From NCBI RefSeq assembly GCF_003334255.1, contig NZ_QOWU01000054.1: a stretch of DNA of 39,423 nucleotides. The stretch is one strand, 5' to 3'. Shown piece by piece: positions 33,241 to 35,557 of this stretch. Positions within the stretch are counted from its first letter, which is position 1. Each line of letters begins with the position of its first letter. The DNA comes from Escherichia coli (GTDB lineage Bacteria; Pseudomonadota; Gammaproteobacteria; Enterobacterales; Enterobacteriaceae). The notes under the pieces were generated by a model. That model was not told the origin of the DNA. It saw only the letters and a program-made list of their open reading frames with translations, and searched no databases. A program made the position numbers and the translations under genes.

Positions 33241-33981
33241 ATGAATAACAACACCACGGCACCAACCTATACGCTGCGTGGCTTACAGTTGATTGGTTGG
33301 CGTGATATGCAGCACGCCCTCGATTATCTGTTTGCTGACGGGCAGCTTAAGCAGGGAACGCTGGTTGCCATTAATGCTGAAAAAATGCTGACTATTGAAG
33401 ATAACGCCGAGGTCAGGGAGTTAATTAACGCTGCCGAATTTAAATATGCGGATGGCATCAGCGTTGTACGTTCAGTACGTAAAAAGTACCCGCAGGCGCA
33501 GGTTTCCCGCGTTGCCGGTGCCGATCTCTGGGAAGAGCTGATGGCGCGCGCAGGCAAAGAAGGGACGCCGGTATTTCTTGTGGGCGGTAAACCTGAAGTG
33601 CTGGCGCAAACTGAAGCTAAACTGCGCAACCAGTGGAATGTGAATATCGTTGGCAGTCAGGATGGTTATTTTAAACCCGAGCAGCGTCAGGCGCTGTTTG
33701 AACGCATTCATGCCAGCGGTGCGCAAATCGTCACCGTTGCGATGGGATCGCCAAAGCAGGAGATCATCATGCGCGACTGCCGTCTGGTACATCCAGATGC
33801 GCTGTATATGGGCGTTGGCGGGACTTACGATGTTTTCACCGGTCACGTAAAACGCGCACCGAAAATCTGGCAAACGCTGGGGCTGGAGTGGCTCTACCGC
33901 CTGCTTTCGCAGCCGAGCCGCATTAAGCGTCAGCTTCGTTTGCTGCGTTATTTACGCTGGCACTACACCGGCAACCTATGA
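33241..33981 (+). CDS. wecG: UDP-N-acetyl-D-mannosaminuronic acid transferase (WecG/TagA family), 246 aa
   Basis: ORF track 246 aa [31 protein letters not shown]... Confidence 0.9.
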
Positions 33982-34000
33982 TTTTCCTCTCTTTGTAAAG

Positions 34001-34038
34001 CGACGGAGTGGTCACTCCGTCGCCTGTCTGCTTTTTTA
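34001..34038 (+). terminator. Candidate terminator after the ECA cluster
   Basis: CGACGGAGTG-GT-CACTCCGTCG inverted repeat followed 9 nt later by T6; spacing is non-canonical. Confidence 0.5.
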
Positions 34039-34171
34039 TTACACAAAGCATTCAAATTTTTAATGCTTTATTTGCCATTTCTCCTGAATTACGAAAACAT
34101 TTGCAACACTCGATGTACCCATAACGATAACCGGTAACACCGGAAAGCATGCAAACACAACACGAGGATTT

Positions 34172-35557
34172 ATGGCAGATAACAAACCAGAGCTACAGCG
34201 TGGGCTGGAAGCTCGACATATCGAACTCATCGCCCTGGGGGGCACCATTGGCGTCGGCCTGTTTATGGGGGCCGCCAGTACCCTGAAATGGGCCGGGCCA
34301 TCCGTATTGTTGGCCTATATCATCGCCGGGCTGTTCGTCTTTTTCATCATGCGTTCAATGGGCGAAATGTTGTTCCTCGAACCGGTTACCGGTTCGTTCG
34401 CCGTTTATGCGCATCGTTATATGAGCCCGTTCTTTGGCTATCTCACCGCCTGGTCTTACTGGTTTATGTGGATGGCGGTGGGGATCTCTGAAATCACCGC
34501 CATTGGCGTTTATGTCCAGTTCTGGTTCCCGGAGATGGCGCAGTGGATACCCGCATTGATCGCAGTGGCGCTGGTGGCGTTGGCGAATCTGGCGGCGGTG
34601 CGGTTGTACGGCGAAATCGAGTTCTGGTTCGCGATGATCAAAGTCACCACGATTATCGTGATGATTGTCATTGGCCTGGGCGTGATTTTCTTTGGCTTTG
34701 GCAATGGCGGGCAGTCGATTGGTTTTAGCAATCTCACAGAGCATGGCGGTTTCTTTGCGGGTGGCTGGAAAGGGTTCCTGACCGCTCTGTGTATTGTGGT
34801 GGCGTCCTACCAGGGCGTGGAGCTGATTGGCATTACTGCCGGTGAAGCGAAGAATCCGCAGGTGACGCTGCGCAGTGCCGTAGGCAAGGTGCTGTGGCGG
34901 ATCCTGATTTTCTACGTAGGCGCGATTTTCGTTATCGTCACCATCTTCCCGTGGAATGAAATAGGCAGCAACGGCAGCCCGTTCGTACTGACTTTTGCCA
35001 AAATCGGTATTACCGCAGCGGCGGGCATTATCAACTTTGTGGTGCTGACGGCTGCGCTCTCTGGCTGTAACAGCGGCATGTACAGTTGCGGACGTATGCT
35101 CTACGCACTGGCGAAAAACCGTCAGTTACCGGCGGCAATGGCGAAAGTTTCCCGTCACGGCGTACCGGTTGCGGGTGTGGCAGTATCTATTGCTATTCTG
35201 CTAATTGGCTCATGCCTGAACTACATCATTCCCAATCCGCAGCGTGTGTTTGTCTACGTCTACAGTGCCAGCGTGCTTCCGGGGATGGTGCCATGGTTTG
35301 TGATATTGATAAGCCAGCTGCGTTTTCGGCGTGCACATAAAGCGGCGATTGCCAGCCATCCGTTCCGCTCAATCCTGTTCCCGTGGGCCAATTACGTAAC
35401 AATGGCATTCCTGATTTGCGTTTTGATCGGCATGTACTTTAATGAAGATACGCGTATGTCGCTGTTTGTTGGCATCATCTTTATGCTGGCGGTGACGGCG
35501 ATTTATAAAGTTTTTGGCCTTAATCGCCACGGGAAAGCGCATAAACTGGAGGAATAA
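34172..35557 (+). CDS. yifK: APC-family amino acid permease, 461 aa
   Basis: ORF track 461 aa with 12 predicted TM stretches; recognised as YifK from memory. Confidence 0.9.

Follow-up and report, generated by a model that had tools for sequence, protein, structure and literature searches.

An inverted repeat beside the −35 box of the Escherichia coli yifK (thrP) promoter, possibly a piece of UP-like upstream DNA

Introduction

The stretch between wecG (rffM) and thrP (formerly yifK) is present in all 5,426 complete Escherichia coli genomes, and it carries a short, perfect inverted repeat upstream of the thrP start codon. This raises the question of what the symmetry stands for. The repeat may be an operator for a dimeric regulator of the permease gene or a secondary-structure element, as the original prediction proposed, or it may belong to promoter DNA that acts without regard to its symmetry. 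We examined it in a window of 39,423 nucleotides, the whole stretch of DNA analyzed here (RefSeq assembly GCF_003334255.1, contig NZ_QOWU01000054.1). Every base of the 190-bp wecG-yifK spacer in this window is the same as in K-12 MG1655, where the thrP ATG lies at NC_000913.3 3980887.

The yifK promoter has been dissected in Salmonella only (Yang, Figueroa-Bossi and Bossi 2014, PMC3879156). The recent thrP papers do not discuss the promoter, and in the literature mentioning yifK or thrP we found neither a description of the repeat nor protein-binding data for its site. That the gene product is a high-affinity threonine/serine permease has been recognized only recently, and the gene sits where the Lrp and GcvB networks cross. 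At −63 to −39, the repeat is a concrete target for footprinting or deletion. If it served Lrp as an upstream contact or were itself a specific operator, this would fill a small gap in what is known of amino acid uptake control, and no reading of the repeat changes any general concept.

Results

Position of the repeat relative to the yifK promoter

The features of the locus are listed here with window coordinates, and promoter positions are counted from the transcription start given in the list.

33241..33981, + strand: wecG (rffM) coding sequence, last gene of the enterobacterial common antigen cluster
34000..34037, + strand: wecG 3' hairpin with arms GCGACGGAGT/ACTCCGTCGC (34000-34023), then 8 nt, then T6 (34032-34037); putative non-canonical terminator
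34045..34052, no strand: left arm AAAGCATT, −63 to −56
34053..34061, no strand: spacer CAAATTTTT with AAA/TTT inner pairs; centre T34057 = −51
34062..34069, no strand: right arm AATGCTTT, −46 to −39; 2 bp from the −35 hexamer
34072..34077, + strand: −35 hexamer TTGCCA, placed by the Salmonella −33 mutation position (C34075)
34095..34100, + strand: −10 hexamer AAACAT after a 17-bp spacer, inferred from its spacing to the −35 box and +1
34108 (NC_000913.3 3980823), + strand: inferred transcription start A, 64 nt before the ATG, transferred from Salmonella primer extension
34108..34171, + strand: yifK 5' UTR, with the CCGGTAACACCGG hairpin and an ACA-rich GcvB target just before the Shine-Dalgarno sequence (PMC3879156)
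34172..35557, + strand: yifK = thrP coding sequence, a threonine/serine:H+ symporter (PMC10070963)

The two arms pair at all eight positions, and AAA/TTT extends the symmetry inward, giving 11 of 12 complementary pairs around the single central T34057, with one C/T mismatch (repeat finder, 12-nt arms). The perfect 8-bp inverted repeat that had been predicted is thus present; its right end was correctly placed at 34069, while its left end is at 34045 rather than 34046 and its spacer measures 9 nt rather than 8 nt. The local order is TTTTTTATTACAC-AAAGCATT-CAAATTTTT-AATGCTTT-AT-TTGCCA, and the repeat region is 80% A+T. Measured from the yifK ATG, the right end lies 103 bp and the centre 115 bp upstream. 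On its other side, the repeat starts 8 nt past the T-run of the wecG hairpin, which bears out its placement downstream of a putative wecG terminator.

The wecG hairpin itself folds with −18.5 kcal/mol (z = −4.0), and because 8 nt separate its stem from the T-run it is not a canonical intrinsic terminator. Our promoter/terminator consensus scan made no call in the hairpin region (34000-34037), and the Term-seq tables (Adams et al. 2021) hold no 3' end there. The sole terminator-like match of the scan is on the minus strand at 34131-34143, unrelated to the repeat, and the scan returned no promoter-like sites. The hairpin stretch is highly polymorphic within E. coli, T-run included.

In Salmonella, the yifK mRNA has a single 5' end, 64 nt before the AUG by primer extension, and a C-to-A change at −33, which makes the −35 box TTGACA, increases expression by a factor of more than 10; the wild-type mRNA is undetectable on Northern blots, and GcvB pairs just upstream of the Shine-Dalgarno sequence (PMC3879156). 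To transfer this start, we stepped 64 nt upstream from the ATG in the window and likewise in two Salmonella loci; all three agree in having U at +21, G at +27 and +59, and C at −33, within TTGCCA. A directly mapped E. coli start had no entry at 3980700-3980899, or at the equivalents in older versions, in the Cappable-seq and Kim 2012 supplements. Counted from the start inferred via Salmonella, the repeat is part of the yifK/thrP promoter, spanning −63 to −39 and centred at −51.

Two observations concern the leader. Term-seq data (Adams et al. 2021, eLife supplement) list an "orphan" 3' end at 3980881, which is window position 34166, 6 nt before the yifK ATG and beside the Shine-Dalgarno sequence and the GcvB target, from which it follows that E. 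coli accumulates a processing product or a short leader RNA. The 5'-UTR hairpin CCGGTAACACCGG (34131-34143) keeps its pairing with other sequences elsewhere, for example CCGGCAAAAGCCGG and CCCGCAGCGTCGGG, and is apparently the "presumptive secondary structure" struck by G27A in Yang et al. 2014.

An alternative promoter and an RNA hairpin

Genomic SELEX with RNA polymerase-RpoD holoenzyme as the only protein recovers the rffM-yifK spacer, and the study in question gives the hexamer pair ATTACA/TTTAAT for this spacer (PMC3946193). It is conceivable that the repeat holds an alternative sigma-70 promoter, ATTACA (34038-43), 15 bp, TTTAAT (34059-64), and CTTACA-15-TTTAAT is indeed kept in Salmonella. 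However, the A at position 2 of a −10 hexamer is near-essential, and TTTAAT lacks it at that position; the spacer is only 15 bp, no promoter-like site came out of the consensus scan, and neither Enterobacter nor Citrobacter conserves the −35-like part. The published pair is, moreover, a sequence guess inside a low-resolution SELEX peak, whereas the single Salmonella 5' end 64 nt from the AUG is strengthened by the −33 mutation in TTGCCA. We consider this alternative highly improbable.

Another possibility is that the repeat works as an RNA hairpin, be it a secondary wecG terminator, a 3'-end stabilizer or part of a longer yifK leader. It is predicted to fold beside the strong wecG hairpin, and the U-rich UUUAUUUG follows it. 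Yet only 2 of its 8 pairs are G-C, its folding energy is −5.3 kcal/mol (z = −1.4), and 16 of 200 shuffled sequences fold as well. The G+C-rich stem, U-tract and mapped 3' end that characterize an intrinsic terminator or 3'-UTR hairpin are not found together here: the terminator scan makes no call at the repeat, and the Term-seq tables (Adams et al. 2021) are without a 3' end at 3980700-3980799. An Rfam scan of 33800-34400 at a permissive E-value returned sub-threshold chance matches only (E of at least 0.026), none of them meaningful over the repeat. The start mapped in Salmonella is downstream of the repeat, the arms do not covary even with G-U pairs allowed, and the repeat shares the low E. 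coli polymorphism of the yifK promoter, whereas the wecG 3' region varies (both below). With a weak fold, no Rfam match and no mapped 3' end nearby, the secondary-structure element of the original prediction is not supported, and we reject an RNA role as very unlikely.

Conservation within Escherichia

Across eight divergent E. coli genomes, we counted the variable sites in the 351 bp that surround the repeat, with the following outcome.

33982-34044, wecG-proximal spacer: 11 of 63 sites variable
34045-34069, repeat: 0 of 25 sites variable
34070-34107, core promoter: 1 of 38 sites variable
34108-34171, 5' UTR: 2 of 64 sites variable

The repeat differs from the neighbouring wecG-proximal spacer with p = 0.03 by Fisher's exact test, and the same test gives p = 0.0004 when the block is taken to reach from the repeat as far as the ATG. 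The repeat is also unchanged in two genomes of cryptic Escherichia clades, in which the core promoter gains variable sites at 34081 and 34083, and in E. albertii the repeat is altered at two positions, 34056 and 34069. Because of this polymorphism contrast, we group the repeat with the constrained yifK promoter block and not with the variable wecG 3' region. Its assignment to the yifK promoter region, made earlier from the sequence, is thus upheld both by its distance from the Salmonella-inferred start and by the low polymorphism that it shares with the promoter.

One position in the core promoter is itself of note. At −6 (window 34102), the window and K-12 have T (TTTGC), as does E. albertii, and C (TTCGC) is found in all seven of the other divergent E. 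coli sampled, in the cryptic Escherichia clades and in most other genera.

Conservation of the promoter across Enterobacteriaceae

With the YifK protein as query, we found 80 loci in species-representative genomes, and with the window included the promoter could be anchored on the −35 box in 76 of 81 sequences. Distinct promoter types numbered 65. The core promoter is near-invariant in the 76 anchored sequences, TTTGCCATTT - N - AATT - N - AAACCATTCGC, although part of this conservation was forced by the anchoring pattern, which demanded most of the −35 hexamer. Most other genera have AACCAT at −10 where the window has AAACAT, and the length of the yifK 5' UTR varies widely across the family.

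Upstream of the core, the consensus across Enterobacteriaceae is TGTGCAATrCATTCA-T7-AATGCwTy, which is only partly palindromic. The best-conserved part of the repeat is the T-run from −52 to −47 (about 0.8-1.1 bit over the 65 promoter types). The left arm is the least conserved across genera, with 0.05-0.8 bit per position and 0.05-0.23 bit from −60 to −58, and the right arm stands above it, with A-45 at 1.44 bit, C-42 at 0.94 bit and T-40 at 1.42 bit. Given the low polymorphism within Escherichia and the conservation of the T-run, A-45, C-42 and T-40, at least part of the repeat is under constraint.

The symmetry fares differently from these bases. Scored in the E. coli register, the dyad is perfect (8/8) in 5 of the 65 types, namely two from Escherichia, Citrobacter sp. 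Awk 4 and the Enterobacter hormaechei/cloacae/quasihormaechei group; it reaches 7/8 in four types and 3/8 or less in 33. It is degraded in Salmonella (2-3/8 in both subspecies), the Citrobacter freundii complex, Klebsiella, Kluyvera and most other genera. Citrobacter sp. Awk 4 retains the E. coli form. The Enterobacter hormaechei/cloacae group has AATGCATT...AATGCATT, in which one pair is T:A in place of the A:T of E. coli; this two-sided change looks compensatory, yet many lineages have a mismatched T/T at the same pair. Conservation in orthologous promoters, the point on which the prediction was to be judged, therefore divides: parts of the repeat are conserved and its symmetry is not.

We assessed covariation of the arms in a MAFFT alignment of the 56 promoter types with a TTGCCA-type −35 box, against 500 column shuffles. 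There was none: 54.1% of cells pair, compared with 54.0% after shuffling, and 253 of the 500 shuffles reach the observed value; allowing G-U pairs likewise revealed none, and no measure of covariation rose above the shuffles. The true register does outscore slid registers (21-41%), an advantage due solely to the partly palindromic columns of the consensus. An ungapped test on 65 sequences with Watson-Crick pairs only had shown a small dyad excess (3.66 versus 3.35, reached by 17 of 2000 shuffles), which is gone on the MAFFT alignment, and we attribute it to relatedness and not to covariation.

Within this A+T-rich stretch, Salmonella and the Citrobacter freundii complex have short dyads of their own: GCATT-N5-AATGC, whose centre is displaced 2 bp, and ATTCA-N5-TGAAT. 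Klebsiella, Raoultella and Kluyvera keep the core promoter but have G+C-containing sequence in place of the T-run.

The core promoter and its surroundings show two further peculiarities. The core at window positions 34070-34104 is near-invariant in about 75 Enterobacteriaceae species, non-consensus bases and the poor −10 AACCAT included. Conservation far beyond the needs of sigma-70 suggests a protein site that may overlap the promoter, with the anchoring having forced part of it. In the Kluyvera group (loci L022, L023, L029 and L031), 13 bp are inserted between the upstream boxes (GTGATrCATTCAC…GATACTT) and the −35 hexamer, and the upstream block, shifted by more than one helical turn, has nonetheless kept its sequence.

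Chance expectation and the case for a symmetric operator

A perfect repeat with 8-bp arms and a short spacer is not exceptional by chance. With a spacer of at most 20 nt, the window holds 50 such matches at 27 centres, versus about 15.5 matches in dinucleotide shuffles, and 6.7% of shuffled versions of the 190-bp wecG-yifK spacer contain at least one perfect 8-bp-arm repeat. Less common is the extended palindrome, with 11 or more of 12 pairs and a gap of 0-1, which occurs three times in the window versus 0.2 ± 0.46 times per shuffled window. The core GCATT-N9-AATGC with up to one mismatch occurs once in the window, versus 2.6 expected, which is at or below chance.

It is possible, then, that the symmetry arose by chance and serves no function in itself, its conservation in Escherichia following from its short length and from its position in a slowly evolving promoter block. 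The frequency of equally good repeats in shuffled spacers is consistent with this, as are an A+T content that favours palindromes, the lack of covariation and the poorly conserved left arm. What speaks against it is the contrast between the zero polymorphism of the repeat and the neighbouring 63 bp, together with the conservation of the T-run, A-45, C-42 and T-40 across many genera. We regard a purely fortuitous repeat as unlikely.

Alternatively, the repeat could be a true operator at which a dimeric factor, Lrp or another, represses or activates yifK, with GCATT and AATGC as candidate half-sites 14 bp apart, centre to centre, around −51. Its form would suit such a role, since its two half-sites are equivalent, with 8/8 arm pairs and 11/12 in the extended palindrome, and it stands next to a core promoter element, 2 bp from the −35 hexamer. 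The rarity of the extended palindrome in shuffled windows, the invariance of the repeat in the sampled Escherichia genomes, a dyad register that scores above all slid registers, the two-sided A:T to T:A change in the 8/8 Enterobacter hormaechei/cloacae form and the E. coli form in Citrobacter sp. Awk 4 all point in the same direction. The orthologues do not: half-sites that are neither conserved (8/8 in only 5 of 65 types) nor covarying in the column-shuffle control, a left arm that is nearly unconstrained across genera, and a dyad of at most 3/8 in 33 of 65 types, including both subspecies of Salmonella, the genus in which yifK regulation was worked out, are all at odds with an operator. The different short dyads in Salmonella and the Citrobacter freundii complex are what chance symmetry would be expected to produce, and the IHF-like match in the repeat is at chance (30 versus 29 expected). 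We know of no factor whose consensus fits the spacing of the repeat. An operator in the general sense is doubtful in our view, to much the same degree as a purely fortuitous repeat.

A narrower version confines the operator to certain lineages, with a dimeric regulator acting in Escherichia and, through the form changed on both sides, in the Enterobacter hormaechei/cloacae group. This appears distinctly unlikely; if true, it would mean an extra input into threonine/serine uptake that is absent in Salmonella.

Several known sites were set against the repeat and discarded. An IHF site is one, its match being no more frequent than expected. CRP (TGTGA-N6-TCACA), the ArgR box, the TyrR box, MetR, NtrC, NsrR (AANATGCATTT-N-AAATGCATNTT) and the CytR octamers (GTTGCATT) do not fit the 9-bp spacing or the E. 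coli sequence; by eye, the sites of these seven factors share short words with the arms, and they are leads at most.

Resemblance to an UP element

The distal subsite of an UP element is reportedly AWWWWWTTTTT (Estrem et al. 1999). We found that TTCAAATTTTT (34051..34061, + strand), which lies at −57 to −47, matches this subsite at 9 of 11 positions, a score that only 0.33% of the 11-mers of the window attain. At the same position, 19 of 65 distinct orthologous promoters match it at 9 or more of the 11 positions. RNA polymerase-RpoD holoenzyme on its own also binds the rffM-yifK spacer in genomic SELEX (PMC3946193), which fits an UP-like element. The region is 80% A+T and has the right position for an UP element, an A+T-rich sequence at −57 to −38 upstream of a sigma-70 −35 hexamer. 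The consensus of the proximal subsite is AAAAAARNR, to which AATGCTTTA (−46 to −38) is by inspection a poor match, and a position-by-position comparison with the full-length UP consensus gives 7 matches at 14 specified positions.

We tentatively favour, with a probability of roughly 0.45, the reading that the repeat is A+T-rich, UP-like upstream promoter DNA, possibly also used by an Lrp repression complex.

Lrp as a possible second user of the upstream DNA

Genetic work has revealed a single transcriptional regulator of yifK, namely Lrp. It represses Salmonella yifK in minimal medium and leucine relieves this repression; an lrp insertion and leucine each derepress yifK-lacZ (PMC3879156). The literature that we searched contained no footprint or ChIP result for direct Lrp binding at yifK. 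Neither yifK, rffM, thrP nor matching coordinates occur in the text and supplement of the genomic SELEX study of 314 Lrp sites (Shimada 2015), and the supplements of Ziegler 2023 (mBio) do not list yifK, rffM or thrP.

We compared the promoters with the 15-position consensus that SELEX reportedly gave for Lrp, YAGHAWATTWTDCTR (Cui et al. 1995). The centre of the repeat matches it at 11 of 15 positions on both strands, without the informative AG and CT positions, and the window holds 289 matches of at least 11/15, which puts the match in the repeat at chance level. The earlier suggestion of Lrp as a candidate regulator is right as regards repression of yifK in Salmonella. Across the promoters, the Lrp-like match with the best positional conservation centres on −21 (mean 9.75/15, at least 11 in 26 of 73 promoters), and a weaker peak lies at −52 (mean 8.6), 31 bp farther upstream; these scores are modest and depend on base composition. 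Phased Lrp sites are about 30 bp apart. Thus, the spacing of −21 and −52 appears compatible with phased Lrp dimers, though the peak could reflect base composition.

Discussion

Our results indicate that the repeat is an ordinary piece of promoter-upstream DNA, undescribed as such but of a well-known kind. Judging from the sequence comparisons, its perfect 8-bp symmetry is the Escherichia state of the partly palindromic block AATrCATTCA-T7-AATGCwTy, and nothing in them indicates selection for symmetry. On the UP-like reading, the repeat would act as double-stranded promoter DNA, not as RNA, just upstream of a weak sigma-70 −35 hexamer. The conserved A3/T5 tract (−54 to −47) would sit where the alpha C-terminal domains contact a distal UP subsite, and from this position we infer such a contact here.

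The likeness to an UP element has its limits. As in the distal subsite of rrnB P1 (−57 to −47), an A-tract is followed by a T-tract at the same position relative to the −35 hexamer. Unlike an UP element, however, the yifK repeat has a poor proximal subsite, its T-run is absent in Klebsiella, Raoultella and Kluyvera, and the promoter is very weak in vivo, as seen in Salmonella. Because the wild-type Salmonella promoter is so weak, any UP effect must be small or masked.

A part for Lrp in the same DNA may be pictured as follows. The main Lrp site would lie in the −35/−10 spacer, at about −21, and since Lrp represses yifK and leucine relieves the repression, the A+T-rich repeat is the most plausible upstream contact; we infer direct binding at the promoter on these grounds. 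Lrp bound at about −21 and at the repeat would then occlude RNA polymerase and the alpha contacts of the polymerase. Regulation of Salmonella yifK is like that of Lrp-repressed, leucine-relieved promoters of amino acid uptake and catabolism genes, of which the oppABCDF response is an example (PMC3879156). As in such promoters, the upstream DNA of yifK is A+T-rich and has two weak consensus-like positions 31 bp apart. The sdaA and tdh promoters are also repressed by Lrp and relieved by leucine. Unlike in Lrp-repressed promoters, the YAGHAWATTWTDCTR match of the yifK repeat is at chance level and the locus is absent from the Lrp genomic SELEX list.

The comparison with classical dyad operators beside the −35 box, bound by helix-turn-helix dimers, is likewise a mixed one. 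The yifK repeat is also perfect-armed, centred at −51 and invariant within the species, but its arms are separated by a 9-bp A+T spacer and its half-sites show neither co-conservation nor covariation.

Finally, two features of other genera came to light in the same region. Compared with E. coli, Salmonella and Enterobacter, the yifK leader is extended by about 70 nt in many genera, among them Citrobacter, Leclercia, Kosakonia, Cedecea and Siccibacter (locus L005, about 2365-2440; loci L018, L036, L046, L051 and L062, upstream of position 2501). This additional stretch, …CAGTGCCGTGGTGTTTT…GCGCCA…GGTCGGTGC…GCATGGCCTGTTATG…, is conserved and structured-looking, matches no Rfam family at the gathering threshold and, from the sequences, appears to have been lost in E. 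coli. Pluralibacter, Pseudocitrobacter and relatives (loci L039, L070, L048, L025 and L056) have a perfect dyad, ATTGCRCA-N5-TGYGCAAT, at about −80 to −60, which we take to resemble NtrC-type TGCACY-N5-RGTGCA sites. The right half of this dyad is the widely conserved TGTGCAAT box, at which E. coli has diverged (TTACACAA).
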